NCBI GenBank assembly: GCA_963751345.1
Contig: CAVVUS010000034.1
Coordinates: 26,963 to 90,962 of the forward strand
Direction: 5' to 3'
DNA: 64,000 bases
Source of the DNA: an uncultured Chloroflexia bacterium
GTDB taxonomy: Bacteria > Chloroflexota > Anaerolineae > B4-G1 > SLSP01
This document shows, piece after piece, positions 42,377 through 58,355 of the stretch. Position numbers and translations under genes: made by a program. The notes beneath the pieces are model-generated. The model did no database searches and was not told the origin of the DNA. It worked only from the letters and a program-made list of their open reading frames with translations. The stretch's first letter is position 1. Each line of letters begins with the position of its first letter.

Positions 42377-43357
42377 ATGAATCGACAGTTCGCAGTTCTG
42401 GGGTTCATGACGAGAGGAGGCGCGCTCTCCAAGATCCACGAGCTTATTCGTGAGATGCAGGTCTCGCGTGTGATGACCACGTCTCTTTTGACGCTATCGC
42501 CGGATGCCACGATGAAGGAGTTCAAAGAGCTTCTGCGCGAGCACCGGATCTCAGGTGTCCCCGTGGTACAGGATCAGGAGCTTGCCGGCATCGTAAGTAT
42601 TGAGGATCTGATTCATGCGCTGGAATCCCAGCAGATGGACGCGCACGTCGGCGAATTCATGACCCGTGACGGTCTGGTGACCGCCTATGCGCAGGAACCG
42701 GTGATGGAGGCGCTACGGCGCTTCGAGACGACGGGGATCGGGCGAATGCCCGTGCTGGATTCGCGCAACAAGCTTGTGGGCATCATCACCCGAGGTGACA
42801 TTACCGTAGCCTTGCTGGCGGCATTGCAGGAACTTTACACAGAGGCAGAGGCGATCCAGGAACGCCCCCAGCATTTCTTCGATGCTCTCGAATCCGAAAA
42901 CACCAGTCTGCTGCTCCGGTACCGGATCCAGAAGGGGGACTTCGCGCGGGGCGGCGACGCTTCGGCGAAGATCAAGCGAGCGCTGCTCCGGATTGGCGCT
43001 TCACCGCAGCTAGCCCGGCGCGTCGCGATTGCTTCCTACGAGGCCGAGGTCAACCTCATCATCCACACCGTCGACGGCGGACTCATTCTGGCCGACATTC
43101 AGCCTACCGAGATCACGATTGTGGCACAGGACTCCGGCCCGGGCATGGCGGACGTCGAGCTTGCTCGTCAGCCCGGCTATTCGACGGCAACCTCCGAGAT
43201 TCGCGAAATGGGGTTTGGTGCGGGCATGGGCTTGACGAACATCGAGCGCTGCGCCGACAAGATGAGCCTTTGGTCGGCCGTGGGAGTGGGCACGCGGCTG
43301 CAGATGTCGTTCAGGGTCTCGCCCGAGGAAGCCAGTGAGACAGAGGCCAAGAGCTAG
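42377..43357 (+). CDS. CBS-pair plus RsbT/RsbW-like Ser/Thr kinase (HATPase_c) fusion
   Basis: Two CBS motifs (HRISGVPVV, GIGRMPVLD..LVGIITRGDI); GDASAKIK, ASYEAEVN, DSGPG, GYST, GFGAGMGL. Confidence 0.9.
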   Translation: MNRQFAVLGFMTRGGALSKIHELIREMQVSRVMTTSLLTLSPDATMKEFKELLREHRISGVPVVQDQELAGIVSIEDLIHALESQQMDAHVGEFMTRDGLVTAYAQEPVMEALRRFETTGIGRMPVLDSRNKLVGIITRGDITVALLAALQELYTEAEAIQERPQHFFDALESENTSLLLRYRIQKGDFARGGDASAKIKRALLRIGASPQLARRVAIASYEAEVNLIIHTVDGGLILADIQPTEITIVAQDSGPGMADVELARQPGYSTATSEIREMGFGAGMGLTNIERCADKMSLWSAVGVGTRLQMSFRVSPEEASETEAKS

Positions 43358-43375
43358 CGCAAGGAGTGAGTGGGC

Positions 43376-43711
43376 ATGAAGGCACAGGACATTGTTGAGC
43401 AACTGGGTTGGAAGGTGCTTGCCGGCGCCGACCAATTGGGGAACGAGGTGGACGGGGGATATGTGGCTGACCTCCTGAGCTGCGTCATGGCAGGGGCCAA
43501 AACCGGGAACATCTGGATCACACTCCAGACCCACGCTAACGTCGTCGCCGTGGCCTCCCTCCTCGGCCTTTCGGCGATCGTGGTCGCCGAGGGTGCCGCA
43601 GTTCCCGAGGGCACGATCGACAAGGCCCAGGAGCAAGGGATGCCGGTGCTGTCGAGTCCTGAGCCTGTCTATGAAACGGTATCAAGCTTGATTCGGCTGG
43701 GCATCCGATAG
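43376..43711 (+). CDS. Second DRTGG-like protein
   Basis: GGYVADLLSCVMA, WITLQTHANVVAVASL. Confidence 0.85.
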   Translation: MKAQDIVEQLGWKVLAGADQLGNEVDGGYVADLLSCVMAGAKTGNIWITLQTHANVVAVASLLGLSAIVVAEGAAVPEGTIDKAQEQGMPVLSSPEPVYETVSSLIRLGIR

Positions 43712-43736: not shown

Positions 43737-44483
43737 ATGCGGGAGTATCGGGCCGACCTTCACGTGCACACCGTCCTGTCGGCGTGTGCCGAGGTCGAGA
43801 TGATCCCCCCTCTGATTGTAGAAGAAGCACTTTACAAAGGTCTGGATGTGATTGCCATCACGGATCACAACGCCACAGGCAACGCAGTTGCTGTGCGGGA
43901 AGCGGCTGAAGGGACAGCATTGACCGTACTGCTGGGAATGGAGCTGCAGACGCGGGAGGAAGTCGACGTCTTGTGCATCTTCGACACGGTATCCGCGGTT
44001 GAGGCGTGGCAGGCGATCGTGGATGCGCAGATACCTCCACTGAAGAACGATCCCGACCACTTCGGCTCGCAGTTCGTCGTGGATCGCGAGGGCGATCTTG
44101 TGGTCGAGGAGCAACGGCTGCTACAGGCGCCCACGCTCATCGAGCTGGAGGATGCCGCCCGGCGGGTCCACGCGCTGGGAGGGCTGGTCATCCCGGCACA
44201 TATCGACCGGCCCAGCAATGGGCTTATGGCAATGCTTGGGCTCTGGCCTCCTGACCTCGAGGCCGACGCGGTGGAGGTATCACCGAATATGCGGCCCAGT
44301 GAAGCCCGCCGCCGGTATGGGTCCCTGGCGCCTGATATGGCGATCATCAGCAATTCGGATGCCCACTGGCTGGCATGGATGGGCAAAGTGATGACCATCT
44401 TTGAATTGGAGGACGGGCCCACGGTCGTGTCGCTCAAGCAGGCCTTGCATGGCCAAGGTGGACAACGGGCCCGTGTGCCCTAG
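43737..44483 (+). CDS. PHP-domain phosphoesterase
   Basis: ADLHVHT.LS.C, AITDHN, GMEL, PAHIDR, SDAH. Confidence 0.9.
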   Translation: MREYRADLHVHTVLSACAEVEMIPPLIVEEALYKGLDVIAITDHNATGNAVAVREAAEGTALTVLLGMELQTREEVDVLCIFDTVSAVEAWQAIVDAQIPPLKNDPDHFGSQFVVDREGDLVVEEQRLLQAPTLIELEDAARRVHALGGLVIPAHIDRPSNGLMAMLGLWPPDLEADAVEVSPNMRPSEARRRYGSLAPDMAIISNSDAHWLAWMGKVMTIFELEDGPTVVSLKQALHGQGGQRARVP

Positions 44484-44565: not shown

Positions 44566-44633
44566 GTACATTTGGCCCGCACTAGGATCACGAACGGACA
44601 CATACGTCCGCTCCCGCTATTGAGGTGAAAGGT

Positions 44634-45152
44634 ATGAGTGTAGCCACAGAGCAAGTCTCCCAGGAAGTCAACGAACCGGATGCACTGGAGCTCCCTCCAG
44701 AGCAGAAGGCTGTTCTCGATCGAATTCTTGCCGAAAACCGCGATCGCCCCGGTGCGACGATGGTAATCCTGACCCTGACCCAGGAGCAATTGGGATATGT
44801 GTCGCCGGCTATGCAGCGGTATATCGCCGAAGCGCTGGGGATTCCTCTGAGCCATATCTACGGCGTGCTGACCTTCTACTCCTTCTTCCGCATGAGCCCG
44901 GTCGGACGCCACAAGATCAGCATCTGCCTGGGAACCGCGTGTTACGTCCGAGACGGCCCCTCGCTCGTCGAGAAGATGAAGCAAGTGCTGGGTATCGCGG
45001 TCGGTGAGACAACCGAAGACAACCGGTTCACCCTGGAGATCTGTCGCTGTGTCGGCGCGTGTTCGCAAGCCCCCGTCGTCATGATCGACGATGATATCGT
45101 GGGCCGGGTTCAGCCACCGGATATCGCTAAGACGCTGCGCAAGTACGAATGA
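44634..45152 (+). CDS. NuoE-like [2Fe-2S] diaphorase subunit 1 (HydC/HndA/HoxE-like)
   Basis: TFYSFF, CLGTAC, RCVGAC..APV. Confidence 0.92.
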   Translation: MSVATEQVSQEVNEPDALELPPEQKAVLDRILAENRDRPGATMVILTLTQEQLGYVSPAMQRYIAEALGIPLSHIYGVLTFYSFFRMSPVGRHKISICLGTACYVRDGPSLVEKMKQVLGIAVGETTEDNRFTLEICRCVGACSQAPVVMIDDDIVGRVQPPDIAKTLRKYE

Positions 45153-45748
45153 CCGTTTTCCGCGACCTATCTCAGCATATTATGGATGTCGCTGAGAACA
45201 GTGTCACGGCAGGTGCTACGCTGCTGAATCTTGACATTGAAGAGAGCCGGACGGAAGACCGGCTCACCATGACGATCCGTGATAATGGGCACGGGATGGA
45301 CCCGGAGATGCTGTTGCGGGTCGCGGATCCATGGGTGACAACGCGAACAACGCGCAAAGTGGGCCTTGGGATCCCGTTCCTGAAGCAGACAGCGGAGATG
45401 TGCGGCGGAAGCTTTGAGATTTCATCCGTAGCCGGACGCGGCACCACGACGCGCGCGACATTTCAGCTCAGTCACATCGACCGTCCGCCGCTGGGAGATC
45501 TGGTCGGGACACTGCTGTGCATCGTAGTAGGGAACCCGCAGGTGGATTTGGTCTATCGACATCAAGTCGAAGGGGCAGCATTTGCCTTCGAGACGCGAGA
45601 GGTTCGTGAGATTTTGGGGCCCGAGATCCCATTGTCAGATCCCGAGGTCCTTGCATTTGTCCGCGGCACGATCAGCGAGGGGCTGACATCCATCAACTGC
45701 GATGGCATTGTCAGCGATGCCGCCAGTCAGAGGAAAGCAAAGTCATAG
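45149..45748 (+). CDS. Stand-alone histidine-kinase-like ATPase (HATPase_c)
   Basis: DLSQHIMDVAENS, DNGHGM, DPWVTTRTTRKVGLGIP, HIDRPPLGD. Confidence 0.88.
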   Translation: MTVFRDLSQHIMDVAENSVTAGATLLNLDIEESRTEDRLTMTIRDNGHGMDPEMLLRVADPWVTTRTTRKVGLGIPFLKQTAEMCGGSFEISSVAGRGTTTRATFQLSHIDRPPLGDLVGTLLCIVVGNPQVDLVYRHQVEGAAFAFETREVREILGPEIPLSDPEVLAFVRGTISEGLTSINCDGIVSDAASQRKAKS

Positions 45749-45762
45749 AGAGGACATACGAG

Positions 45763-46122
45763 ATGAAAAGCCTGGAAGAACTGCAGAAAATCAAGGAACG
45801 CGCCTTGGAGCGCCGGAAGCTGTCAGGCGAAGGCGCACGCGCACGCGTCGTCGTTGCCATGGGCACGTGTGGTATTGCCGCCGGCGCGCGCGACACGATG
45901 ACGGCCATTCTCGGTGAGTTGGAGAAGCGTTCCATCGCCAACGTCGTTGTGACACAGACAGGGTGCATTGGCCTGTGCGAGTATGAGCCCATCGTCCAGG
46001 TCCAGGTCGGCGATCAGGATATGGTCACCTACGGCCACATCGACCCCAGCCGGGTCCCCGAATTGGTCGACGAACACGTGGTCGGCGGGGCGCCGGTCGA
46101 GAAGTGGGTCGTTAGGAAGTAG
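45763..46122 (+). CDS. Thioredoxin-like [2Fe-2S] ferredoxin subunit (HydD/HndB-like)
   Basis: [23 protein letters not shown]. Confidence 0.9.
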
Positions 46123-46172
46123 CGGGCACCGGCGCGGGAGTCGATTCCCGGCGCTATGCCCGAGGAGGTAAA

Positions 46173-47933
46173 ATGCCTTATCGTGCGCATGTAATTATCA
46201 GTGGGAGCCAGCCGCAAGCGCAGGCAGTCAGTGAGGCCTTGCTGAGCGAGATCGATGTGCTCGGTCTGGGCCAGGAAGTCGAAGTCTTGGAGGCTGCCGA
46301 CCAGACGGTTGCGCCGCGCGGCGTTGAGGCCGTGGTCTATCCGGATTCGGTGCATTACACGGACCTGACCCCGGAAGACGCTCGGTTGATCGCGGACGAG
46401 CATCTCTACAAGGGGCGCCCCGTCGAAAGCCTGAGATTTCATGAACGGGTCGCCGAACCTCTGCCCGAGCCTTCTGTAAAAGAGGTGCGGGTGGTTTTGC
46501 GTAACGTCGGCAAGATCAACCCTGAGAATATCGAGGATTACATCGCTCAGGACGGCTATGCGGCGTTGGGCAAAGTCCTGACGCAGATGACACCGGACGG
46601 GGTTCTCGCGGAGTTGAAGACCTCGGGTCTGCGTGGACGCGGCGGGGCCGGATTTCCCACTTACCTCAAGTGGACCTTCGCGCAGAAAGCCTCGGGCGAC
46701 AAGAAGTATGTCATCTGCAATGGTGATGAGGGCGATCCTGGCGCCTTCATGAATCGCCGCGTACTGGAGGGCGATCCCCACGCCGTGTTGGAAGGTATGG
46801 CCATCGCAGCTTACGTCGTGGGCGCCGATCAAGGCTACCTCTACGTCCGGGCCGAGTATCCCATCGCGATTCGCACGCTGCGTGTTGCCATCGAACAAGC
46901 CCGCGAGTACGGACTACTGGGCGACCACATCTTTGGGACGGACTTCAGCTTCGATTTGGAGGTCCGTATGGGCGCCGGCGCCTTTGTCTGCGGTGAGGAG
47001 ACTGCATTGATGCAGTCTATCGAGGGCAACCGTGGACAACCCCGCACGCGCCCGCCCTTCCCCGCGACCTCAGGGCTATGGGGAAAACCCACGAACATCA
47101 ACAACGTCGAGACCTATGCCAACGTGCCCCAGATCCTGCTCAAGGGCGGCGAATGGTTCGCCTCCATGGGCACCGAGAGGAGCAAGGGCACCAAGACCTT
47201 TGCCATTGCGGGCAAGGTCAAGCGTACGGGTCTCATCGAAGTGCCACTGGGAATCACGGTCCGCGAGATCGTGTACGACGTGGGCGGCGGCGTTCTGGAT
47301 GACAAAGCCTTCAAGGCGGTTCAGACAGGCGGTCCGCTGGGAGGTTGCATTCCCGAGAAGTATCTCGATCTGCCCGTGGAGTACGAATCCCTGGTCTCGG
47401 TCGGCTCCGCCATGGGCTCGGGTGGCTTCATCGTTATGGATGAAGAGACCTGTATGGTCGATATGGCACGATTCTTTATGGAATTCGCCCAGGAGGAGTC
47501 ATGCGGCAAGTGCGTCCCGTGCCGCGTGGGCACCCGGAAGATGTTGGAGATTCTGGAAAACATCTGTGCCGGCAAGGGGCAGCCGGGCGACATCGAGGCA
47601 TTGGAGACACTGGGCCAGTATGTGAAGCTCGGGTCGCTATGTGGGCTGGGCCAGGGCGCCCCGAACCCCGTCTTGAGCATGATCGAACACTTCCGCGACG
47701 AGTACGAGGCCCACATCTACGACAAGACCTGCAGCGCTAAGGTCTGCCGTGCGCTCATCACCTTCTCGATTGATCCGGAGACGTGCATCGGCTGCACGCG
47801 CTGTGCACGAAACTGTCCCGTGACCGCCATCACCGGCTCTCCCCGCCAAGCCCACGTCATCGACTCGGAGATCTGCATCCGCTGCGGCATTTGCGAGCAG
47901 GTCTGCCCGGTCAACGCCGTGAGCGTCGCATAG
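46173..47933 (+). CDS. NuoF-like FMN/NADH subunit 1 (HydB-type, with C-terminal 2x[4Fe-4S])
   Basis: [38 protein letters not shown]...VC, CIGCTRC...CP / CIRCGIC...CP. Confidence 0.95.
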
Positions 47934-47976
47934 GGATCATCCAGGGGACAAGACAACAAAAAGGAAAGGGGTACGT

Positions 47977-48450
47977 ATGGAAGGGGTTCTAGCTGTCACA
48001 GACAGGATCATCGGTACCTACGCTGCGGACAAGGAGGCTCTCGTCGAGATCTTGCGTGGAGTGAACGACGAGAGTGGGCATCTGTCCCGCGAGCAACTTG
48101 AAAGAATCGCGGAGCGCGTTGGCCTGCCGTTGAGCAAGGTCTACAGCGTGGCAAGCTTCTACAGCTTGATCAATCTCGAACCGCTGGGCCGCCACGTGGT
48201 CCGCTTCTGTGAAGACGCTCCGTGTCACATCGCCGGCGGTCTCGCGATCTGGGAGGCTCTTGAGCACGAACTCGGCATTCCGTTTGGCGAGACGACGCTT
48301 GACGGGGAGTGGTCGCTGCTGACCACGAGTTGCATCGGTGCTTGCGCCGTCGGCCCCGTGATGATGGTCGACAACGACATCTACGGCAACCTTACGCCGG
48401 AGAAGGTGAGTGAAATCATCGCTCGCTATCGGCAGGGAGGTCAGGTATGA
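47977..48450 (+). CDS. NuoE-like [2Fe-2S] diaphorase subunit 2
   Basis: SFYSL, CEDAPC, SCIGAC..GPV. Confidence 0.92.
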   Translation: MEGVLAVTDRIIGTYAADKEALVEILRGVNDESGHLSREQLERIAERVGLPLSKVYSVASFYSLINLEPLGRHVVRFCEDAPCHIAGGLAIWEALEHELGIPFGETTLDGEWSLLTTSCIGACAVGPVMMVDNDIYGNLTPEKVSEIIARYRQGGQV

Positions 48451-50030
48451 TCCGCGCAAGTGTCCTTATTTCCGGGGACCCGCTCAGCCTATCACGAGGA
48501 GCGGAAGAGACGAAACTCGCCATCGAGGCGGAATTATCATTCTACGGACTCGAAGATGAAGTGCAGGTCGGGTACACCGGCCGGGTCAACCGCACCGACG
48601 TCTTGCCGGTGGTCGTGGTCTACCCTGAAGGGACCGTCTACGGCCCCGTCTCCCCCAAGGATGGCGCACTTATTGTCGAGGAACATCTGTACAAGGGCCG
48701 CACGGTCGAACACCTTGTCGTCTCCGCTGAGGTCGCCTCGGCCGAGATCGACACGCTGCGTGGCGAGGGAGATGCCCTTTTCGGCCAGAAGCGCGTGGTG
48801 CTCAGACGGGCCGGCACGATCGATCCCTACAGCATCGACGACTATATCGCCTACGATGGGTACTTCGCGCTGGGTAACGCCATCACGAACATGACGCCGG
48901 ACGGGGTCTTGCAGACCGTCAAAGATGCCGGCCTCCAGGGTCGCGGCGGGGCAGGCTTCCCGACCGGGCTCAAGTGGACCTTCGTCGCGGAGCAGCCCGA
49001 CCCCACCCATTACATCGTCTGCAACGCAGACGAGTCAGAACCGGGCACCTTCAAGGACCGGCTCATCGTGGAGGGCGATCCCCACTCCGTGCTGGAGGGG
49101 ATGGCCTTGGCCGGGTACGCCGTGGGTGCCAGCGAAGGCTGGATCTACATCCGCGGCGAGTATGCGATGGCCACAGATATCCTGAAGCACGCCATCGAGC
49201 AAGCTGAGGGGATGAACCTGCTGGGCGACAACATCCTGGGGAGCGATTTCTCGTTCCACATCCACGTCCACGCCGGGGCCGGCGCTTACGTCTGCGGCGA
49301 GGAGACGGCACTGCTGAACAGCCTCGAAGGACAGCGCGGCCAGCCACGCATCCGCCCGCCCTACCCCACGGTCAACGGCTTCCGTGGCAAGCCCACCGTC
49401 GTGAACAACGTCGAGACGCTGGCGAACGTGGCCCCCATCATCCTGAACGGGGCGGATTGGTTCCGAGCCATCGGGACCGAGCGCAGCCCCGGGACCAAGG
49501 TCTACACGATGCTGGGGGACGTAAACGTCACGGGGCTCGTCGAGACACCGATGGGCACCACCCTGCGTGAGATCATCGACATCTACGGCGGTGGCATGAA
49601 GGATGGAAAAGCCTTCAAAGCCGCGCAGACCGGCGGCTCGTCCGGCACCATCATTCCATCGGAATTTCTCGACGTGCCGCTGGACTTCGCTTCTATGCGG
49701 GAGAAGGGCGCAGGACTGGGCAGTGGCGCCTTGTTGGTCTGCGACGAGGACACTGACATCGTCGATCTCGCTTACGTCCTGATACGCTTTTTCAAAGCCG
49801 AGTCATGTGGGAAGTGCACGCCCTGTCGCGTCGGCAATCCCCAGATGCTCGAAGCCCTGGAACGTCTGCGCAAGGGCATGGCCCGCCACGCCGACCTGGA
49901 ACGTTTGGAAGAGATTGCGAACTACGTTCAGCAAGCTTCTTTCTGTGGATTGGGGCAGGCCGCACCGGTACCGATTCTCACCGGACTGCGGTACTTCCGC
50001 GATGAATTCGAGTCCCGCCTGCGGGATTAG
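48447..50030 (+). CDS. NuoF-like FMN/NAD(P)H subunit 2 (HoxF/NuoF-type, no C-terminal ferredoxin domain)
   Basis: [35 protein letters not shown]; ends FRDEFESRLRD. Confidence 0.95.
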   Translation: MIRASVLISGDPLSLSRGAEETKLAIEAELSFYGLEDEVQVGYTGRVNRTDVLPVVVVYPEGTVYGPVSPKDGALIVEEHLYKGRTVEHLVVSAEVASAEIDTLRGEGDALFGQKRVVLRRAGTIDPYSIDDYIAYDGYFALGNAITNMTPDGVLQTVKDAGLQGRGGAGFPTGLKWTFVAEQPDPTHYIVCNADESEPGTFKDRLIVEGDPHSVLEGMALAGYAVGASEGWIYIRGEYAMATDILKHAIEQAEGMNLLGDNILGSDFSFHIHVHAGAGAYVCGEETALLNSLEGQRGQPRIRPPYPTVNGFRGKPTVVNNVETLANVAPIILNGADWFRAIGTERSPGTKVYTMLGDVNVTGLVETPMGTTLREIIDIYGGGMKDGKAFKAAQTGGSSGTIIPSEFLDVPLDFASMREKGAGLGSGALLVCDEDTDIVDLAYVLIRFFKAESCGKCTPCRVGNPQMLEALERLRKGMARHADLERLEEIANYVQQASFCGLGQAAPVPILTGLRYFRDEFESRLRD

Positions 50031-50073
50031 CTGGCTTTTTAGCTAGAGACCTGTCTAAGGAGGCAAGGCACTT

Positions 50074-51774
50074 ATGAGCGAGGTGCAACTCACGATTAAC
50101 GGACAGCCGGTAACTGCCCAAAGCGGCCAGACGATTCTGGAAGCCGCCCAAGGCGCCGGTGTGGATATTCCGGTTCTTTGTTACCATCCGTCGTTGTCAG
50201 CCTGGGGCGCGTGCCGCATGTGCTTGGTCGAGGTCAAGGGGATGCGGGGACTGCAGACCGCGTGCACGTGCCCGATCGCCGACGGTATGGAGGTTCAGAC
50301 CGAAACCGAACCCGCAGTTGAGGTACGGAAGTTCGTGCTGGAACTCCTGTTCGCCGAGCGCAACCACTACTGTATGTTCTGCCAGATGAGCGGCGACTGC
50401 GAGCTTCAGGACGCGGCATATCGCTATGGCCTGGACCACTTCACCTACCCGCGCCCGTTCCAGAAGCTGTCAGTGGATGCGTCCCGGAAGTACTTCATCA
50501 TGGATCACAACCGCTGCATTCTCTGCACACGCTGTGTTCGCGCGTGCTCGGAGATCGTGGCGAACCACACTCTGGACATCCGGGAGCGCGGCGCCGATTC
50601 TATGATCATGGCGGACTTGAACGTCCCCTTTGGAGAGTCGAGCTGCGTCGAGTGCGGCACCTGTCTGCAGGTCTGCCCCACGGGCGCGCTGATCGATGCT
50701 CGCAGCGCCTACGGCGGTCGGGAGAAGGATGTCGTTCACACAGAGACCACGTGCACGCAGTGCAGCGTCGGCTGCACGCTGGACGTTGTCACGCGCTACG
50801 ACCGGCTCCTGCGTGTGGATGGTGTGTGGGGTTCGGAGCCCAATGACGGTCTGCTGTGCGTCGACGGGCGGTTCAAGCCCCTCTACGAGGAGCGCAAGCG
50901 CCTCACCGCTCCCATGATCCGCCGCGACGGCAAGCTGGTCGAGACGGGCTGGGAGGAAGCGTTGGAGGCCGTTGCGGCCAAGCTCAAAGAGGGCAACGTC
51001 CAGGGTCTGGCGACTTGCGCCACCAGCAATGAGGCCCTGGAGGCTTTCACGAAGCTCTTCGAGAAGGTCGATGGCGAGGCAGGGCTGCTGGAGCCGGTAG
51101 CTCCGACGCTCGGATACGGCACCGAGGCCAAGATGGCCGATATTCTTGACGCCGACTTCATCATCGTCGCAGGCGCCCAGCCGCTGGACTATCAGCGTGT
51201 CGTGGGGTACTTCGTCTACCGCGCCGGCGACCAGGGCGCCAAGGTCGCCGTCATCTCCGACTCCAAGACAACGATGAGCGAGAGAGCGGACATGACCGTC
51301 TCGTACGCCGAGGCCGACCAGGTCGCGAGGGCCGCGGCAGACGCCAAGAAGATCGTGCTGATCTACAGTGTGGGCGTCAAGAGCAAAGTGACGGCTGCGT
51401 TCCGCCAGCTTGGTGGGAAACTGTATACCATGGCTTTGAGCCCCGGGCGCAATGCCCAGGGCGCGGCAGACCTCGGGCTAAGGCCGGCGGAGCCGAACGG
51501 CGCCACTGCGCAGTTCTTCCTGCTGGGAGAGCAAAGCGAGGACCCGGCGCTGCTGGGGAAGCTCAATGGGGCTTGGAAGGTAGTTCAGGCCGGCTATCGC
51601 TCGCCGTTGGTGGAGCAAGCTGACGTGGTGCTCCCGACCCCCCTGTGGTACGAGGCTACGGGACACGTGACGAACCTTGAGGGCGCGGTGAAACCGCTGG
51701 TCGAGGTGCTCGCAAAGCCGGAAACGGTGCGCGATGATGCGGACGTGCTCTCAACCCTCGCGGATATGCTATAA
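50074..51774 (+). CDS. NuoG-like multi-FeS subunit (extended HoxU or HydA without H-cluster) with a degenerate molybdopterin-fold C-terminus
   Basis: LCYH..GACRMC..TAC; HYCMFC...C; CILCTRC / CVECGTC; CTQCSVGC...LCVDGRF; ADVVLP....E.TG..TNLEG. Confidence 0.9.
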   Translation: MSEVQLTINGQPVTAQSGQTILEAAQGAGVDIPVLCYHPSLSAWGACRMCLVEVKGMRGLQTACTCPIADGMEVQTETEPAVEVRKFVLELLFAERNHYCMFCQMSGDCELQDAAYRYGLDHFTYPRPFQKLSVDASRKYFIMDHNRCILCTRCVRACSEIVANHTLDIRERGADSMIMADLNVPFGESSCVECGTCLQVCPTGALIDARSAYGGREKDVVHTETTCTQCSVGCTLDVVTRYDRLLRVDGVWGSEPNDGLLCVDGRFKPLYEERKRLTAPMIRRDGKLVETGWEEALEAVAAKLKEGNVQGLATCATSNEALEAFTKLFEKVDGEAGLLEPVAPTLGYGTEAKMADILDADFIIVAGAQPLDYQRVVGYFVYRAGDQGAKVAVISDSKTTMSERADMTVSYAEADQVARAAADAKKIVLIYSVGVKSKVTAAFRQLGGKLYTMALSPGRNAQGAADLGLRPAEPNGATAQFFLLGEQSEDPALLGKLNGAWKVVQAGYRSPLVEQADVVLPTPLWYEATGHVTNLEGAVKPLVEVLAKPETVRDDADVLSTLADML

Positions 51775-51876
51775 TCACACCTGGACTTTCATAGTCCGGG
51801 CCCGGACGCCTGTCCGGGCCCGGGCTCTTGGTCCAGGTGCGGCCAAGAATGCGCCGGAAAGGTAGGAGACTTTACT

Positions 51877-52434
51877 ATGGGAGAAAAGATTACAGTTGCT
51901 TCCCAGTGGCTGGAATCCTGCTCTGGTTGCCACATGTCCTTCTTGGATATCGATGAGAAGATTGTGGAGCTACTCAAGTACGTCGAGCTGAGCTCAACGC
52001 CCATAACGGATATGAAGCACCCTCCCGAGGAAGGTGTGGTGGTGGGTATCCTGACGGGCGGCATCGGCAACGAAGACGAAGAACACGAAGCCAAGCTGAT
52101 GCGCGAGCGCTGCAAGATTCTCATCGCGATGGGCGACTGCGCAGTGACCGGTGGGATCTGCACGATGCGCAACTTCTTCGACAAGGAAGAGGTCCTGCGC
52201 CGTGGTTATATCGAGACCGAAAGCACGGTCGACGGGGAGATTCCGGTTCACGAGGATCTCACCCCGCTGACCGATCAGGTCAAGGGCGTCGGGGACGTGG
52301 TCCCCGTCGACATCTATCTACCCGGCTGCCCCCCTTCGTCCGAGGCCATCTGGTTTGTCTTATCTGAACTGTTGGAAGGCCGGATGCCAAAGCTGGAAGG
52401 TAGCGTGTTGAAGTACGGCAGTGATGGAGGGTAA
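51877..52434 (+). CDS. hoxY: [NiFe]-hydrogenase small subunit, single-cluster HoxY type
   Basis: SCSGCHMSFLD, GDCA..GG, PGCPP; 185 aa. Confidence 0.92.
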   Translation: MGEKITVASQWLESCSGCHMSFLDIDEKIVELLKYVELSSTPITDMKHPPEEGVVVGILTGGIGNEDEEHEAKLMRERCKILIAMGDCAVTGGICTMRNFFDKEEVLRRGYIETESTVDGEIPVHEDLTPLTDQVKGVGDVVPVDIYLPGCPPSSEAIWFVLSELLEGRMPKLEGSVLKYGSDGG

Positions 52435-52439
52435 GGGTA

Positions 52440-53891
52440 ATGGCAGCTAGCGCACAGAAAATCACGATTTCTCCGGTGACCCGTATCGAGGGTCACGCGA
52501 AGATCACCATCCACCTCGACGAGGCAGGGAAGGTACAAGACTCCTTCTTCCACGTCGAGCAGTTCCGCGGCTTCGAGAAGTTCAGCGAGGGGCGGATGTT
52601 CTATGAAATGCCCGAGATCACGCCGCGGACCTGTGGGATCTGCCCGGTCAGCCACCATCTGGCCTCGGTCAAGGCTTGCGACGTCATCGCAGGCACGACG
52701 CCGACGCCGACGGCGCACAAGTTGCGTGACCTGATGCACAAGGGACAGATGATCCAGTCCCACGGTATGCACTTCTTCGAGCTCGCGGGGCCGGACTTCC
52801 TGCTGGGCTGGGACGCCGATCCGAAGGTTCGCCACGTTGGTGGTATCATCGCGGCAAACCCCGATCTGGCGGTCAAGGCCGTGCAACTTCGGGCCTTCGG
52901 ACAGAAGATCATCAAGCTGCTGGGCGAGCGCCGGGTTCACCCCATCTTCGGCGTCCCCGGTGGCGTGACCAAACCCCTGCTCGCCGCGGATCGCGAGTGG
53001 ATTCTCAGCGAGATCGATCAGCACATCGCGACCGCGCAGGTAGGCATCGCGTTCTTCAAAGACTGGATGATGGGTAACGCGGACATGGTGGACGAGTTCG
53101 CGGTCTTCCCCTCCGCCTATATGGGCCTGGTCCAGCCTGACGGCGCGCTCGAGCTCTATGATGGAACGCTGCGCATGGTCGACAAGGACGGCGCGCTCCT
53201 GGAGGAGTTCGATCCCGCGGACTACCTCAACTACATCGGGGAGCACGTCAACAACTACACCTATCTCAAGGCCCCCTTCTACCTGAAGCGCGGCTATCCC
53301 GAGGGCGTCTACCGTGTCGGTCCCCTGGGCCGCCTGAATGCCTCGAGCCACATCGCGACCCCTATTGCCCAGAGTGAGATGAAGATCTGGAAGTCGCTTA
53401 ACGGCGGGAAGCCGGTCGAGGGCACGCTGTACTACCATTACGCCCGGCTGATCGAGCTGATCTACTCCCTGGAGCACGTCAAGGAGTTGATGGACGATCC
53501 TGACATTCTGAGCAAAGATGTCGCCAACCCACGCGGGGAGATCACGGGCGAGGGTGTTGGTGTGCTGGAGGCACCGCGGGGCACGCTCTTCCATCACTAC
53601 TGGACCGACCCCAACGGCGTGATCACCAAGGTCAATATGATCGTCGCAACCGCCGGGAACGCCTGGGCGATGAATCACTCGGTCAATATGGTGGCGAAGC
53701 GCTATGTGGACGGCACCAACCTGCAGGAAGGCATGCTCAACCGCGTCGAGGGCGCCATCCGCGCCTACGACCCCTGCCTCTCCTGCTCGACCCATGCGAT
53801 GGGCCAGATGCCGATGCACATCGATCTTGTCGCGACCGGACGGCGAGGTGCTGGACACGCTCCTTCGCGACTAGCCGTCAGCTGCGGCTGA
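52440..53891 (+). CDS. hoxH: [NiFe]-hydrogenase large subunit, group 3 (HoxH/3d-like); true stop probably 53874
   Basis: TRIEGH, L1 RTCGICPVSH, EAPRGTL.HHY, L2 DPCLSCSTH plus a cleavable tail. Confidence 0.95.
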   Translation: MAASAQKITISPVTRIEGHAKITIHLDEAGKVQDSFFHVEQFRGFEKFSEGRMFYEMPEITPRTCGICPVSHHLASVKACDVIAGTTPTPTAHKLRDLMHKGQMIQSHGMHFFELAGPDFLLGWDADPKVRHVGGIIAANPDLAVKAVQLRAFGQKIIKLLGERRVHPIFGVPGGVTKPLLAADREWILSEIDQHIATAQVGIAFFKDWMMGNADMVDEFAVFPSAYMGLVQPDGALELYDGTLRMVDKDGALLEEFDPADYLNYIGEHVNNYTYLKAPFYLKRGYPEGVYRVGPLGRLNASSHIATPIAQSEMKIWKSLNGGKPVEGTLYYHYARLIELIYSLEHVKELMDDPDILSKDVANPRGEITGEGVGVLEAPRGTLFHHYWTDPNGVITKVNMIVATAGNAWAMNHSVNMVAKRYVDGTNLQEGMLNRVEGAIRAYDPCLSCSTHAMGQMPMHIDLVATGRRGAGHAPSRLAVSCG

Positions 53892-54170: not shown

Positions 54171-54761
54171 TTGGATCCCTTATCGGAACAGACGTTTGCT
54201 CACACGCTTGTCGCCGGATTCGGCAATCTCTACCGCCAGGACGACGGCGTCGCACGTTTCGTCGTCAATGCTCTGCGCGAGCGCCTGGGACAGGCCGCGC
54301 TGGACGAGATGGATGACGGATTCGGGGATCTCGGGCACCCGGTCGATACCGTGGTCCTTCACCAATTGGTGCCCGAGTTGGCCGAAGATCTGAAGGATTA
54401 CGAGCTGGTCATCTTCGTCGACGCTCACGTAGGGTCGGGCATTCCCGAGCCGATCCATGAGGAGCACGTGGAGGTAGCCTATCGCACCCCCTTCGTCTAT
54501 CATCAGACCCACCCCTCGACCGTGCTGGCACTGACGATGCAGATGTATAACACCGCCCCGAGCGCCGTCCTGCTCTCGTTACTGGGACACACCTTTGACT
54601 TCGGCGTGGGGCTCTCGGAAGAGACGGCGGCGTTGGTCAGACCGGCGGTCGACCGTATCCTGGAGCTTGTTACCGCGTCATCTAGGGGAGGGACGCGTCC
54701 CGAGGAGACGACAAGTCGATGCATGAGATGGCAGTTACCGAGGACATTCTCCGCATCGTGA
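54171..54761 (+). CDS. Hydrogenase maturation endopeptidase
   Basis: LVAGFGN..RQDDG, HQLVPE, IFVDAH, F.FGVGLS. Confidence 0.88.
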   Translation: MDPLSEQTFAHTLVAGFGNLYRQDDGVARFVVNALRERLGQAALDEMDDGFGDLGHPVDTVVLHQLVPELAEDLKDYELVIFVDAHVGSGIPEPIHEEHVEVAYRTPFVYHQTHPSTVLALTMQMYNTAPSAVLLSLLGHTFDFGVGLSEETAALVRPAVDRILELVTASSRGGTRPEETTSRCMRWQLPRTFSAS

Positions 54762-55063
54762 GAGAGTACGCGGAGCGAGAGGGAGCCGCAAAGGTGACCG
54801 ACGTTTACCTGGTCATCGGGGAGTTGAGCAGCTTCGTCGACGACTCAATACAGTTCTACTTCGATCTGCTCACGCCGGAGACGATCGCCGCGGGGGCCCG
54901 GCTCCATTTCGACCGGATCAAGACCCGGTTTCGCTGCAGGTCCTGCGGTGAGGAGTTCGAACCCACAGAGCAGGATTGGCTCTGCCCGAACTGCAAGGCT
55001 CTGGGCGGCGACGTGATTGCGGGCAAGGAATTCTACGTCGAGAGTATCGAGATTACGTCATAG
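54719..55063 (+). CDS. hypA: Hydrogenase nickel chaperone HypA
   Basis: MHE start, CRSC and CPNC. Confidence 0.96.
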   Translation: MHEMAVTEDILRIVREYAEREGAAKVTDVYLVIGELSSFVDDSIQFYFDLLTPETIAAGARLHFDRIKTRFRCRSCGEEFEPTEQDWLCPNCKALGGDVIAGKEFYVESIEITS

Positions 55064-55091
55064 CGGTCAGTTAAGATGGTTCCTGAAATAC

Positions 55092-55161
55092 GTCATCCTG
55101 AACGAAGTGAAGGATCCATTACCTACAAGGTTGAGAGCCTTCGCCTGCGGCTCAGGCTGAC
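55092..55161. repeat. GTCATCCTGA-type REP-like inverted repeat
   Basis: gtcatcctgaacgaagtgaaggatc ... gagccttcgcctgcggctcaggctgac. Confidence 0.75.
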
Positions 55162-55215
55162 AGTTCGCACCAATGAGGTTAACTGGCCAATAGTTAACGT
55201 GAACGGAGGAAGATC

Positions 55216-55890
55216 ATGGCAGATACAAACAATGCAACGCGTGTGCCGGTCGTCGAGAGACTGCTGACGGCGAACGAGGAAGTTGCCGCCGACAATCGAG
55301 CTGCGTTCAAGGATCGCGGCGTGACCGTGATCAACATCATGGCATCGCCCGGTGCGGGCAAGACCACACTCTTGCTGGCAACTATCGCTGCCATGGCTCA
55401 GCGCCCCGATAACGGGCCGAGAATCGGCGTGATTGAGGGAGACGTCGCCTCACAGATTGACGCGGACAAGATCGCGACCTCCGGTGTGCCGGTGGTGCAG
55501 ATCAACACGGGCGGTGCGTGTCACCTGGACGCACCGATGGTCCGCCACGGCGTCCAGGCGCTGCCGCTCGACGAGCTGGATCTGGTGCTCGTGGAGAACG
55601 TCGGCAATCTGATCTGCCCGGTCTCCTTCGATCTGGGGCAGGACTACAACGTGGGCATCATCAGCGTTCCGGAAGGTCACGATAAGCCCTACAAGTACCC
55701 GGGCATCTTCGAAGCTGTCGACCTGGTCCTCGTGACGAAGTCGGACCTGCTGCCCTACCTGGACTTCGAGGTGGACACCTTCCGCGAGCTGGTTCACGGC
55801 CTCAACCCAAATGCGCCCGTCCTTGTGCTCTCTGCCAAGACCGGCGAGGGGCTGGACGCGTGGGTCGAATGGCTGGAGGAGAAACTGTAG
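55216..55890 (+). CDS. hypB: Hydrogenase nickel GTPase HypB
   Basis: SPGAGKT, EGD, GACHLDA, ENVGNLICP, TKSD. Confidence 0.97.
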   Translation: MADTNNATRVPVVERLLTANEEVAADNRAAFKDRGVTVINIMASPGAGKTTLLLATIAAMAQRPDNGPRIGVIEGDVASQIDADKIATSGVPVVQINTGGACHLDAPMVRHGVQALPLDELDLVLVENVGNLICPVSFDLGQDYNVGIISVPEGHDKPYKYPGIFEAVDLVLVTKSDLLPYLDFEVDTFRELVHGLNPNAPVLVLSAKTGEGLDAWVEWLEEKL

Positions 55891-55910
55891 AGAGTGGTCG
55901 GCATGTTGAT

Positions 55911-58355
55911 ATGAGATCCGTTCGTTCAGAGGAGCTCGTCGCCCTTCGTATCGCCATCACGGGTGTGGTGCAGGGCGTGGGGTTCCGTCCCTTTGTCTAT
56001 AATCTGGCCAAGGGCATGGCGTTGTCCGGATGGGTCCTGAACCATTCCGGCGGCGTGGACATCGAGGTCGAGGGCCCACAGACCAGCATCGACGCTTTCG
56101 TCGAGGCCCTCTCGACAAAGGCCCCCCCCTTGGCGCGCATCGAATCCATCGAGGCTCACCCGATCCCGTTCGAAGGCTACGACGGGTTTGAGATCCGCCA
56201 CTCCGAGAGCCAGGAAGGTCGCTACCAGCTCATTTCGCCCGACGTCGCGACGTGCCCGGACTGTCTTCGCGAGCTCTTCGATCCTGAGGACCGGCGATAC
56301 CGGTATCCTTTCATCAACTGCACCAACTGCGGACCCCGGTTTACGATCATTGAGGACATTCCCTACGACCGGCCCAAGACGACGATGCGCGTCTTCCCTA
56401 TGTGCGACGAGTGTCTCGCCGAGTACCGGGACCCTGCCAATCGTCGTTTTCACGCTCAGCCGAACGCCTGCCCCGTCTGCGGTCCGCACGTCTGGCTGGT
56501 GGAGCGGGAAAGCAGAGGAGAGAATCAAGAATCTGAGAATGAAGAATCAGCGATACTTCGAGAAACCGAGCAGGTAGGCGAATTACCGGCATCTGGTTTC
56601 CGGCATCCAACATCCAGCATCCAACATCCTGACTCCGACGCCGTCTTCGCCCGCGCGAAGGAACTGCTGTTGGCGGGCAAGATCCTGGCCATCAAAGGGC
56701 TCGGCGGATTCCACCTTGCGTGCGACGCGACCAACGCGGAGGCGGTCGCGGAGCTGAGAGCACGCAAACATCGCCCCGACAAGCCATTTGCGATCATGGT
56801 TCCTACGCTGGAGGACGTGGAGGCGCTCTGTGTGGTGCCGCCCGAAGCCGAAGCCTTGATGACGTCGCCCCAATGCCCGATCGTGCTGCTCGACGCGCGC
56901 CCGGATACTCCCATCGCCGAAGGCGTCGCGCCGAACAACCATACCCTGGGCGTGATGATCCCCTACACGCCGCTGCACCATATCCTCCTGCGCGACGTCG
57001 GACGCCCGTTGGTGATGACCAGTGGGAACGTCTCCGAGGAGCCCATCGCCAAGGACAACGATGAAGCCCTGCGGCGGCTCGCTCCACTGGCGGATGCCTT
57101 CCTCCTGCACAACCGCGACATCCACGCACGCTACGACGACTCGGTGGTGCAGTTAGCAGCGATCAGCGATCAGCCGTCAGCACCAACCGTTCAGTTCCTC
57201 CGCCGCGCGCGCGGGTATGCGCCGTTCCCGATCCGGCTGCCCTTCAAGGCACCGCAGATCTTCGCGGCGGGCCCCCTGCTAAAGAATACCTTCACCCTGA
57301 CGCGGGACGACTACGCCTTTGTGAGCCAACACATCGGCGATCTGGAGAACCTCGAAACGTTGGAGCACTATGAGGCCGCCCTGGCCACCTACCGGCACCT
57401 CTTTCGGCTCGATCCTGAGGTTGTCGCCGGCGATCTCCACCCGGACTACATGAGCACCCGGCTAGCCGACGCCTACGCCCGCGAGCACGGCCTGCCCGCG
57501 CCGTTTCGGGTCCAGCACCACAAGGCGCACATCGCCGCGTGCCTGGCAGACAACGGATGGGCTCCCGAAGCAGGGCCCGTGATCGGCGTGGCCCTCGACG
57601 GGACGGGATACGGGGAGGATGGACGGATCTGGGGGGGAGAGTGGTTCATCGGCGATTACCACGGCTTCGAGCGAGCCGCCCATCTGGCCTATCTGCCGCT
57701 GCCCGGGGGCGACGCGGCGATCCGGCACCCCTGGCGCACTGCCGTGGCCTACCTTCACGCCCTGGGTGCCGACGATCTGCTGCCGCTGGGTGAGTTCTGT
57801 CCCTCCGACGTGATGAGGGTGCGGATGATGGTCGACAGGGGGCTCAATACGCCTCAGACTTCCTCGATGGGCCGTCTCTTTGACGCCGTCAGCGCGCTCC
57901 TTGGCGTGTGCTATGAGGCCACTTACGAGGCGCAAGCGGCCATCGAGTTGGAGCAGACCGTGCCGGCAGGGCACGACAGCCGAGGACCCGTCACCCCATA
58001 TGGCTACGAGATAGACTACCGGCGTCTCACCGCATCTGATCGGTGTCGGATCGCTTCTCGATGGTATCATGGGAGACGTGCGAACGTGGCGAGCCCCTGG
58101 CTGACGTCGTCCTGCGGTTCCACGTCACCATCGCTGCGATGATCGAATCGGTCAGCCACCTTCTGCGGGAGAGGACCGGGATCTCGACCGTGGCGTTGAG
58201 TGGTGGCGTCTTTCAGAACCGCCTGTTGCTGGCGCACGCCGTCCCGCGCCTGGTCGCAGCAGGCTTTCACGTGTTAGGGCACCGGCAGGTACCACCCAAC
58301 GACGGGTGTATCTCGCTGGGGCAGGCCGCGATGGCGGCATTTCATAGTGTGTCAT
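55911..58355 (+). CDS. hypF: Carbamoyltransferase HypF (frameshift near 58030)
   Basis: GVVQGVGFRP, CxxC zinc fingers, RRFHAQP, KGLGGFHL, QHHKAH, DGTGYG, SGGVFQN, PPNDG.ISLGQ. Confidence 0.96.

Follow-up and report, generated by a model that had tools for sequence, protein, structure and literature searches.

An Acetomicrobium-type [NiFe]-hydrogenase operon from an Anaerolineae genome carries a second NADH module of non-bifurcating type

The window, the whole 64,000-nucleotide stretch of DNA that we analyzed, comes from an Anaerolineae MAG and contains a [NiFe]-hydrogenase operon in which two NuoE/NuoF pairs of contrasting type, E1-F1 and E2-F2, precede a single connector and a single pair of hydrogenase subunits. 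Both pairs are homologs of NuoE-NuoF of complex I, the first of bifurcating and the second of non-bifurcating type. We read the operon as an Acetomicrobium-type NiFe-HydABCSL with a second NADH module, and judging from the gene sequences we would give an even chance to what we take as the likeliest proposal, that the two modules are interchangeable heads of one core; the cell could then probably run one hydrogenase in two energetic modes. We found no paper in the literature on this double-head operon architecture.

Pfam and NCBIfam assignments define a single co-directional operon, which runs DRTGG, CBS-GHKL, DRTGG, PHP, E1, HisK-like, HydD-like, F1, E2, F2, G, S, L and then the maturation genes (Table 1). 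They bear out the order given in the first-pass annotation, two NuoE/NuoF pairs followed by one NuoG-like subunit and one small and one large [NiFe] subunit; its gene list stands for the pairs and the core, but had overlooked the HATPase_c gene and the HydD/HndB-like gene that lie between E1 and F1. E1/HisK and E2/F2 overlap by 4 nt, gaps of 43 nt separate F1 from E2 and F2 from G, and terminator-like sites within the operon are no more numerous than expected by chance. The CBS-GHKL protein gives a weak match, far under the cut-off, to the NCBIfam SpoIIAB model, and its gene is kept upstream in most double loci. The HydD-like protein aligns to the N-terminal [2Fe-2S] domain of the HydB representative and has only three conserved Cys, found in 29 of 31 orthologs.

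Table 1. Genes of the operon, with positions in the window.
Feature	Position	Strand	Evidence
DRTGG-domain protein, opens regulatory cassette	41907..42275	+	Pfam PF07085, E 4.1e-6
CBS pair + GHKL ATPase (HATPase_c_2; anti-sigma/Ser-kinase-like)	42377..43357	+	Pfam CBS 2.3e-29, HATPase_c_2 5.6e-8
Second DRTGG-domain protein	43370..43711	+	Pfam PF07085, E 6.9e-7
PHP-domain phosphoesterase	43737..44483	+	Pfam PF02811, E 2.1e-8
E1, HydC/NuoE-like [2Fe-2S] subunit, 2Fe-2S_thioredx	44625..45152 (alternative ATG 44634)	+	PF01257, E 1.2e-47
HisK-like stand-alone GHKL ATPase (HATPase_c), without phospho-acceptor domain	45149..45748	+	PF02518, E 5.3e-14
HydD/HndB-like small thioredoxin-like ferredoxin	45763..46122	+	PF01257, weak, E 3.8e-4
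F1, HydB/BfuB-like flavoprotein, bifurcating type	46173..47933	+	Pfam Complex1_51K, SLBB, NADH_4Fe-4S, C-terminal Fer4 dicluster
E2, NuoE-like [2Fe-2S] subunit of second head	47977..48450	+	PF01257, E 6.2e-47
F2, NuoF-like flavoprotein, non-bifurcating type	48447..50030	+	Pfam Complex1_51K + NADH_4Fe-4S only
G, HydA(NiFe)/NuoG-like Fe-S connector, degenerate molybdopterin domain	50074..51774	+	Pfam Fer2_4, NADH-G_4Fe-4S_3, Fer4_Nqo3, Molybdop_Fe4S4, partial Molybdopterin
S, [NiFe] small subunit, ligands for one [4Fe-4S] only	51877..52434	+	PF01058 (Oxidored_q6)
L, [NiFe] large subunit, group 3	52440..53891	+	PF00374 (NiFeSe_Hases)
Hydrogenase maturation protease	54171..54761	+	TIGR00072, E 1.1e-15
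hypA, hypB, hypF (two frames), hypC, hypD, hypE maturation genes	54719..60712	+	Pfam

The beta-subunit criteria described by Losey et al. (2020, PMC7311640) assign to bifurcating enzymes A/E..M at the NADH site, F near FMN and GGPSG in the SLBB region, and to non-bifurcating enzymes T/S..K/S/A, Y near FMN, no GGPSG and fewer Fe-S domains. F1, whose best PDB match is 7t2r_B (815 bits), agrees with two of the bifurcating criteria (GAFM and GTKTF), while its third site reads GGPLG, and GGPMG in other orthologs, where the published motif is GGPSG. Its translation contains the [14 protein letters not shown] and [19 protein letters not shown] stretches quoted in the first-pass annotation, followed by the C-terminal Cys, and together with Pfam it bears out what was claimed there: motifs, Cys/His site and a 2x[4Fe-4S] domain at the C-terminus. 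DEETC, H..C..C and the eight C-terminal Cys, which in the window F1 lie within the last 61 residues, are common to all 28 F1 orthologs, which are intact, share 65-97% identity and keep every ligand and motif save the N-terminal cluster ligands. The N-terminal thioredoxin-like domain has no Cys in its first 109 residues, all four [2Fe-2S] ligand positions are substituted in the alignment to the HydB representative, and the full four Cys occur in none of the 28 orthologs (0-3 Cys per first 100 residues). In the partner subunit E1, C101, C106, C142 and C146 are conserved in 32/32 orthologs. In T. kivui HydABC, loss of the N-terminal cluster reportedly lowers bifurcation about tenfold and removal of the HydB C-terminus also reduces it (PMC10021017), and Schut 2022 (PMC9304861) and Zheng & Huang 2024 are cited as regarding the complete B1-B5 set as typical of bifurcating enzymes. 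With the N-terminal cluster, important in T. kivui, missing from F1, it is likely but not certain, on sequence, that F1 belongs to a bifurcating enzyme.

F2 is 50% identical to F1, with the same best PDB match (7t2r_B, 589 bits), and E2 is 36% identical to E1, its four Cys being conserved in 35/35 orthologs. The F2 translation carries DESEPGTFK (GTFK), GTKVY, GGSSG and DEDTD and terminates in ...ESRLRD, past the N3 region; it has no Cys/His site, no C-terminal Fe-S domain and no GGPSG, and its N-terminal thioredoxin-like domain has no Cys. The absence of Cys from this domain in both F1 and F2 had gone unnoticed in the earlier annotation, whose reading of F2 (TFK and Y, missing ligands, a stop after the N3 cluster) agrees in full with the translation. 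F2 has the non-bifurcating states of Losey et al., constant in 32/32 orthologs, so that the contrast of two NuoF types drawn at the outset holds in 28/28 F1 and 32/32 F2 orthologs; eleven deeper F2 orthologs retain the Cys/His site. Phylogenetic trees place F2 among proteins with non-bifurcating motifs, many of which are NuoE-NuoF fusions. F2 is without both of the parts, the HydB C-terminus and the N-terminal cluster, whose removal is reported to lower bifurcation in T. kivui.

The core shared by these pairs consists of G, S and L. The best PDB match of G is 7t2r_A (311.4 bits), and Pfam finds no Fe_hyd_lg_C (H-cluster) domain in it. S aligns only to positions 1-173 of the NCBIfam VhuG model, with C15, C18, C88 and C151 conserved in 35/35 orthologs. 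L contains RTCGICPVSH and DPCLSCSTH and has 7t2r_D as the top of 67 PDB matches (574.8 bits), ahead of MvhA (405) and HoxH (5xf9_D, 393). An alternative partner for one of the heads, [FeFe] HydA or an FdhA-type formate dehydrogenase, was looked for in the 93%-complete window genome and none was found; the only NuoG-type proteins found there are G and the NuoG of complex I.

We propose that E1-F1 and E2-F2 would dock alternately on the single G, which would wire whichever head is docked to the [NiFe] site of S-L. With E1-F1, H2 would be coupled to NAD(H) and ferredoxin by bifurcation or confurcation, as expected from F1, which combines the flavin-site motifs AFM, F and GGPxG with a Cys/His site and, at its C-terminus, a 2x[4Fe-4S] domain for ferredoxin docking. 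With E2-F2, the enzyme would work as a plain NAD(H)-linked hydrogenase with no need of ferredoxin, as expected from TFK and Y and from the lack of GGPSG, Cys/His site and C-terminal domain in F2. Against alternating heads, co-transcription would make both at once, and unless regulated the two would let electrons pass from ferredoxin to NAD via H2 in a short circuit. The suggestion that the upstream kinase cassette sets the mode is weakened: the cassette travels with the bifurcating-type half, and HisK is also described in the single-head A. mobile operon and the cassette is therefore not specific to a switch.

The double-module operon was sought in other genomes and occurs on 55 distinct Chloroflexota contigs. 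The full double order was present on 27 of 42 Chloroflexota contigs in the first sets, 8 of the remaining 15 being interrupted by the contig end, and on 29 of 37 in a further set, one of which duplicates an earlier contig. These include the cultured Longilinea arvoryzae KOME-1 (L195) and Bellilinea caldifistulae GOMI-1 (L180). Misassembly is rejected by the identical order on 27 + 28 independently assembled Chloroflexota contigs. Only about 15 of 151 sampled Anaerolineae genomes have a full-length F2 ortholog, and Synergistaceae relatives (L196, L199, L200, L208, L211-L213) carry a single head. The F1 half is not in place at five loci: L026 has E2-F2-G-S-L alone, downstream of ribosomal protein genes, while L020, L169, L170 and L182 carry D-E2-F2-G-S-L but neither E1 nor F1, and L020 still has a fragment of HisK and the HisRS neighbor known from the window. 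On gene content, E2-F2-G-S-L is the constant, putatively self-sufficient unit, and E1-HisK-HydD-F1 with the DRTGG/CBS-GHKL/PHP cassette a predicted add-on that is lost or relocated in some lineages.

Moreover, the L026 genome carries an intact F1 cassette (77% identical) on a separate contig with no A-type gene adjoining, and its G is the sole NuoG-type protein found there; the L031 genome has G-S-L without an adjoining head and a double cassette beside FdhA. Judging from these arrangements, the heads seem to work in trans with A subunits. Other genomes have the same double cassette upstream of [FeFe] HydA or FdhA, so that it is portable and no peculiarity of this [NiFe] enzyme. Tentatively, we extend this to a cassette of bifurcating-type and non-bifurcating-type heads that may serve [NiFe] G-S-L, [FeFe] HydA and FdhA, also in trans, in at least six phyla. 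The phyla concerned are Chloroflexota, Bipolaricaulota, Cloacimonadota, Caldisericota, Elusimicrobiota and Verrucomicrobiota. If this were true, one H2 or formate catalyst could be switched between an energy-conserving ferredoxin+NADH mode and plain NADH, and the DRTGG/CBS-GHKL/PHP and HisK-like proteins could gate the bifurcating head.

Other readings of the operon have to be weighed against the exchange of heads on one core. It is unlikely that both heads sit in one larger complex with two nucleotide sites, either a mixed oligomer (E1F1-G-S-L)(E2F2-G-S-L) or a two-flavin particle. In HydABC-type enzymes two or four protomers are linked via HydA, and a dimer of pentamers in A. mobile (PMC8880783) and a dimer in T. 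kivui HydABC (PMC10021017) are the reported examples; the genes are co-directional and closely packed, and the heads are co-inherited, with matching subtree shapes. However, with its one NuoG-type N-terminus each copy of G would, by homology, take a single head, the single T. kivui protomer is described as the functional unit, with modeling that disfavors electron transfer through the dimer interface (PMC10021017), and the F1 half is missing from the five loci above. We also doubt that E1-HisK-HydD-F1 is a separate BfuBC enzyme that does not use G and is merely co-regulated with an E2F2-G-S-L NAD-linked hydrogenase. Such an enzyme would be BfuA-less ("type 4") or have an unrecognized partner. 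BfuA-less Bfu enzymes have been proposed (PMC9304861), the F1 cassette is unlinked in L026, and the F1 homologs of L065, L030 and L077 are fused to a GltD-like NADPH/FAD domain that could provide a third substrate. Yet the window F1 ends in an ordinary C-terminal ferredoxin domain with no added catalytic domain, and without a third substrate no exergonic reaction would power ferredoxin reduction; moreover, the best solved relative of F1 is the HydB seated on A. mobile HydA-S-L, and no other A-type partner was found in the window genome.

We consider it improbable that both heads are coupled, or that they differ mainly in nucleotide (NADH vs NADPH) or ferredoxin partner rather than in whether they bifurcate. 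The Synechocystis HoxEFUYH, long held to be non-bifurcating, is reported to bifurcate without a C-terminal domain (10.64898/2026.06.25.734504), and sequence rules can therefore not be taken as final; the HydABC of T. kivui and that of A. woodii are described as differing in their use of NADP and NAD (PMC10021017), and the eleven deeper F2 orthologs keep the Cys/His site. Nevertheless, F2 has none of the three flavin-site motifs and neither the N-terminal cluster nor the C-terminal domain, the window F2 also lacks the Cys/His site, and the trees place F2 with proteins of non-bifurcating motifs, whereas AFM, F, GGPSG and the N-terminal [2Fe-2S], all absent from F2, are reportedly retained in HoxF (10.64898/2026.06.25.734504). 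Decay of the F1 half to a relic, with E2-F2 alone in use, is very improbable: this half has been lost repeatedly (L020, L169, L170, L182) and the N-terminal cluster ligands of F1 are gone, but all 28 F1 orthologs are otherwise intact, and so is the cassette even where it is unlinked.

Finally, we compared the operon with known systems. E2-F2-G-S-L follows the same logic as the group 3d HoxEFUYH of Synechocystis (NuoE-like, NuoF-like, Fe-S connector, small and large subunit), and similar Anaerolineae clusters appear as Hox or group 3d in 10.1101/2021.07.06.451242 and 10.1101/2021.08.23.457424. We rejected membership in this group: G, which bears a molybdopterin-domain remnant, scores 264.8 bits against the 333-bit HoxU cut-off, the motifs of F2 and its Cys-free N-terminus differ, and L is closer to A. 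mobile HydL (575 bits) than to the solved HoxH (393 bits). With the non-bifurcating, NADH-dependent Syntrophomonas wolfei Hyd1ABC and Syntrophus aciditrophicus HydAB, as described in PMC7311640, F2 shares T..K, Y, the lack of GGPSG and the lack of extra Fe-S domains; their partner is [FeFe] HydA, whereas here it would be [NiFe] S-L via G, and F2 differs in its Cys-free N-terminal thioredoxin-like domain and in having a bifurcating-type head alongside. The closest system is A. mobile NiFe-HydABCSL (NiFe-Bfu, type 3 Bfu; PDB 7T2R/7T30), reported to have one HydBC (Feng et al. 2022, PMC8880783), whose chains are the best solved relatives of F1, F2, G and L. Among type 3 Bfu features, the operon has group 3 L/S, a BfuA-like G without H-cluster, the FMN domain, N3-type [4Fe-4S], Cys/His site and C-terminal 2x[4Fe-4S] of BfuB (F1) and the BfuC [2Fe-2S] (E1), but it has two NuoE/NuoF pairs, by Pfam and translations, in place of one BfuBC pair per operon, and F1 lacks the BfuB N-terminal [2Fe-2S] of the B1-B5 set. 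Likewise, the connector without H-cluster, the small subunit with one cluster, and the Cys/His site and C-terminal 2x[4Fe-4S] domain of F1 are shared with A. mobile, while the window F1 lacks N-terminal [2Fe-2S] ligands, G is shorter (566 vs 692 residues) and HydD has three conserved Cys. The A. mobile HisK, so named by its authors, is described as absent from the purified enzyme (PMC8880783, PMC9304861), and the HisK-like gene of the window is presumably its homolog at the same place. The order HydC-HisK-HydD-HydB-HydA-S-L, as given in the same two papers, is common to both operons, and in the window the extra E2-F2 pair is inserted between HydB and HydA.

The hydrogenase genes lie on contig C34 of an Anaerolineae MAG (49 contigs, 93.4% complete, 5.6% contaminated), where they form one co-directional string on the + strand. 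It encodes two NuoE/NuoF-like heads, one of bifurcating type (E1-F1) and one of non-bifurcating type (E2-F2), ahead of a NuoG/HydA-like connecting subunit (G) and the [NiFe] small and large subunits (S and L). Every residue quoted in the first-pass annotation is present in the translations, and its gene order holds for the genes it named, but two genes between E1 and F1 had been overlooked. The nine structural genes carry no frame breaks; elsewhere in the MAG, breaks occur in complex I nuoF and nuoG and in hypF. The last (window 55860-58357) is read as two overlapping frames of 760 aa and then 104 aa, the second with the end of HypF_C_2, and the hypE ORF (59861-60712) covers only part of AIRS_C; both are probably frame errors of the assembly. 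A promoter and terminator scan of 41500-55500 returned 5 promoter-like and 8 terminator-like sites, no excess over the 4.1 and 8.6 of shuffled sequence and hence uninformative about sub-operons, and a sequencing-run look-up listed 10 DNA runs (shares ≤0.27) and no RNA run.

Genes of the hydrogenase string in the window, from the ORF listing, Pfam and NCBIfam
Feature	Coordinates	Strand
DRTGG	41907-42275	+
CBS + GHKL ATPase	42377-43357	+
Second DRTGG	43370-43711	+
PHP	43737-44483	+
E1, NuoE/HydC-like	44625-45152	+
Stand-alone HATPase_c protein (HisK-like)	45149-45748	+
HydD/HndB-like small thioredoxin-like protein	45763-46122	+
F1, NuoF/HydB-like with C-terminal Fer4 dicluster	46173-47933	+
E2	47977-48450	+
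F2	48447-50030	+
G, NuoG/HydA-like	50074-51774	+
S	51877-52434	+
L	52440-53891	+
Maturation protease	54171-54761	+
hypA, B, F, C, D, E	up to 60712	+

Bifurcating beta subunits carry A/E..M, F and GGPSG, while non-bifurcating ones have T/S..K/S/A and Y, lack GGPSG and possess fewer Fe-S domains (Losey et al., 2020; PMC7311640); the same three are the signature motifs of bifurcating hydrogenases in a 2026 Synechocystis preprint (10.64898/2026.06.25.734504). F1 shows GAFM, GTKTF and GGPLG, eight Cys in a 61-residue C-terminal domain, and DEETC with H..C..C, ligands of the type that passages of Feng et al. (PMC8880783) describe as a Cys/His site. F2, which is 50% identical to F1 (E1 and E2 share 36%), has GTFK, GTKVY, GGSSG and DEDTD and ends after the N3 region. 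We compared 67 distinct F-like sequences from the loci described below, 34 nearest to F1 and 33 nearest to F2, the window's two included. The F1 states are kept in 28/28 Anaerolineae F1 orthologues; TFK, Y and GG[SA][SA]G are kept in all 32 F2 orthologues, none of which has the Cys-rich C-terminal domain. The DxxTC and H..C..C ligands are present in 11 deeper-branching F2 proteins (L013, L026, L044, L045, L046, L052, L055, L056, L058, L063 and L066) and lost in the other 21, including the window's. Four ligands are kept in E1 (32/32), E2 (35/35) and S (35/35).

The N-terminal thioredoxin-like domain of F1 contains no Cys: all four ligand positions are replaced in an alignment to a HydB representative, and the full four Cys occur in 0/28 orthologues. 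HydD has only three conserved Cys (29/31 orthologues), against four in the homologous HydB N-terminal domain. As described in passages of a study of T. kivui (PMC10021017), removal of the N-terminal cluster lowers bifurcation about tenfold, and removal of the C-terminus lowers it as well. Both the cysteine-free domain and the three-Cys HydD count against a simple reading. HydD is still present at four loci without E1 and F1 (L020, L169, L170 and L182), so its role is perhaps not bound to the bifurcating head.

The double order, E1-HisK-HydD-F1-E2-F2-G, was found on many Chloroflexota contigs, cultured carriers included, and its recurrence in independent assemblies rules out the misassembly that the first-pass annotation had considered. 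With G and L as queries against one genome per GTDB species, we obtained 37 and 26 loci, which fall on 51 distinct contigs; setting aside nine distant ones (L032, L034-L038, L040-L042) leaves 42 from Chloroflexota. The whole order stands in one row on 27 of these. L013 has the end of F1, followed by E2-F2-G; in L065 a GltD-like domain is fused to F1, and F2 is shorter. A contig end interrupts eight loci, the F1 half is absent from two (L026, L020), G has no head beside it in two (L031, L027), and one (L030) is a different cluster. Using L066's F2 as query, a second scan found 77 loci, 37 of them from Chloroflexota: 29 show the full order (one being L066's own contig again), three are cut but consistent, two are cut, and three have only HydD-E2-F2-G-S-L (L169, L170, L182). 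The cultured carriers are Longilinea arvoryzae KOME-1 (L195) and Bellilinea caldifistulae GOMI-1 (L180); the latter has an FdhA-like gene between F2 and G (L180:10581-13400), as do L177, L178, L181 and L184. Synergistaceae and Verrucomicrobiota relatives in the same scan carry a single F1-type head before G-S-L.

Among the matches listed for an evenly drawn set of 151 genomes of the class, a full-length F2 match of at least 55% identity occurs in 15 genomes, this one included; 125 weaker matches fell outside that list. On the same contig, less than 1 kb upstream of F2, G085, G138, G039, G084, G043 and G014 have an F1-type match about 595 residues long; the corresponding distance in G027 is about 2.1 kb, and the match there sits in a 1053-residue frame, suggestive of a GltD fusion. 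HydB-type flavoproteins fused to GltD-like Fer4_20 and Pyr_redox_2 domains (about 1010-1050 aa; L030:2626-5718, L065:2294-5410, L077:3940-6981) are very common in Anaerolineae, replace F1 within the double cassette at some loci, and may be BfuA-less Nfn/Stn-like transhydrogenases. At L055:11583-13172, where the contig ends, an additional F1-like gene (69% identical) stands immediately after that of the large subunit.

A profile scan with alignment A1 drew on very general NuoF patterns, and complex I or FDH neighbourhoods account for the majority of its 80 loci; only five are informative, and these show the same head pairing. In Cloacimonetes (L097), Caldisericota (L087), Elusimicrobia (L081) and Verrucomicrobiota (L077, with F1 fused to GltD) the pairing precedes an [FeFe] HydA (PF02906), and in a [NiFe] cluster of Bipolaricaulota (L088) the order is PHP-E1-HisK-HydD-G-S-L-protease-F1-E2-F2. 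The first F of every one of these pairs carries A[FY]M, F and GGPSG, along with 4-5 N-terminal Cys. The second F carries TFK but not GGPSG, has 0-2 N-terminal Cys, and shows Y in three pairs and F in two.

That one pair might serve an [FeFe] HydA or a formate dehydrogenase had been raised in the first-pass annotation. We rejected both as partners here: neither an [FeFe] HydA domain nor FdhA was found in this genome, at 93.4% completeness. Of the four NuoF-type domains that the genome encodes, two lie in the window and two belong to a complex I operon on contig C43; its two NuoG-type proteins are G and the NuoG of complex I. On C43 (G000:C43:115000-124000; L005 7469-17258) two tandem nuoF copies come after nuoA-B-C-D-E, each with its FMN and 4Fe-4S domains in separate frames, and nuoG is fragmented too; the breaks are either assembly indel errors or genuine decay, and a tandem nuoF within a nuo operon is unusual in either case. 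Three further [NiFe] large-subunit genes (C11:174095-175648, C11:296040-296246 and C37:122053-123261) include a 646-aa frame whose match is full-length and a group 3-like one of 456 aa.

In a FastTree tree of 211 rows, comprising the locus sequences and 150 representatives drawn from an exhaustive HMMER search that had F2 as query, the 32 F2 orthologues fall within a 47-row set of non-bifurcating-motif proteins (support 98), where NuoE-NuoF fusions are frequent, and F1 falls within a set bearing the bifurcating motifs and C-terminal domains. When the five outside pairs were added, three of their second heads entered the F2 set; in an 86-row IQ-TREE quick tree all five did (30-row set, SH-aLRT 99). 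Of two tree neighbours, P0122 is equally near to T. kivui/A. woodii HydB and A. mobile HydB in the PDB, and P0127 has no close solved relative there; cluster membership of ten tree representatives gave generic names only. One branching order is shared by the F1 and F2 subtrees (L066, L056, the L063 group, then the rest), which fits long co-inheritance. A tree uniting Anaerolineae F1 and F2 in a single clade, a group chosen post hoc, was not rejected in an AU test (lnL 42.2 lower, p 0.241), so F2 may stem from either an old duplication or an acquisition; these analyses neither demonstrate nor exclude that F2 arose from F1 by recent duplication.

The most economical reading, to which we give about even chances, is that the two heads would serve as alternatives on one G-S-L core. 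Both are NuoEF homologues and G has one NuoG-type docking end; E2-F2-G-S-L occurs without the F1 half at five loci (L026, L020, L169, L170, L182); in Acetomicrobium mobile an orthologue of F1 works on HydA-S-L; and heads and A-type subunits are encoded apart in two genomes, all of which argue for this reading. At L026, E2-F2-G-S-L immediately follows nusG-rplKAJL, and the same genome (G001) has an intact CBS-GHKL-PHP-E1-HisK-HydD-F1 row on a separate contig. Downstream of that F1 (77% identity to its counterpart in the window) comes an unrelated sensor kinase of 1764 residues, and G is the only NuoG-type protein found in G001. In G003, the genome of L031, a complete double cassette lies upstream of a 920-residue FdhA-type protein, G-S-L has no adjoining head, and these two, G and the FdhA-type protein, are the only NuoG-type proteins found; G004 has an F1-E2-F2-FdhA-like row. 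L020 shares the divergent HisRS, NAD kinase and glycosyltransferase neighbours of the window and retains a HisK fragment, HydD and a 424-residue F2, which makes it a deletion derivative. Among the rival readings, a mixed oligomer holding both heads at once appears doubtful, and so does an F1 module that functions without G; two coupled heads that differ in nucleotide seem quite improbable, and decay of the F1 half is a very remote prospect.

With alternative heads on one core, E1-F1 would support ferredoxin-coupled turnover, bifurcating or confurcating, and E2-F2 plain NAD(H)-linked turnover, which would be of use at very low H2 partial pressure, as Losey et al. (PMC7311640) argued for syntrophs. 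Were both forms active together, a ferredoxin-to-NAD short circuit via H2 would result, so some control is to be expected. The DRTGG/CBS-GHKL/PHP genes and the HisK-like gene accompany the F1 half even where it is unlinked, and their products are candidates for this control.

Whether H2 formation is driven by NADH alone or by NADH plus ferredoxin sets the H2 partial pressure that a fermenter or syntroph tolerates and the energy it conserves. To our knowledge, known enzymes do one or the other; an operon supplying both heads to one catalytic core would amount to a built-in change of coupling mode. Anaerolineae are abundant in digesters, sediments and soils, the two-head operon is conserved in many of them, and further instances accompany [FeFe] hydrogenase and formate dehydrogenase. 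F1 and F2 are, moreover, a natural matched pair for asking which HydB/BfuB features permit bifurcation, a question that the two cultured carriers make testable. The operon is undiscussed in the literature we found on the A. mobile enzyme, the Bfu family, the motifs and Anaerolineae MAGs, supplementary operon lists being outside that search; passages of Schut et al. (2022; PMC9304861) place NiFe-Bfu in Synergistetes and Halorhabdus and state that metagenomic data were left out.

Among all PDB chains, F1, F2, G and L find their best match in A. mobile NiFe-HydABCSL (815, 589, 311 and 575 bits, respectively), the next-best matches of L being MvhA (405 bits) and a solved HoxH (393 bits). The A. 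mobile enzyme was purified with five subunits, Anamo_1675-1678 and 1681, and HydD, HydP and HisK are further operon genes absent from it, according to passages of Feng et al. (2022; PMC8880783), with which passages of Schut et al. (2022; PMC9304861) agree on enzyme subunits and extra genes. Set against that operon, the window therefore keeps the same order and differs by the E2-F2 pair inserted between HydB and HydA.
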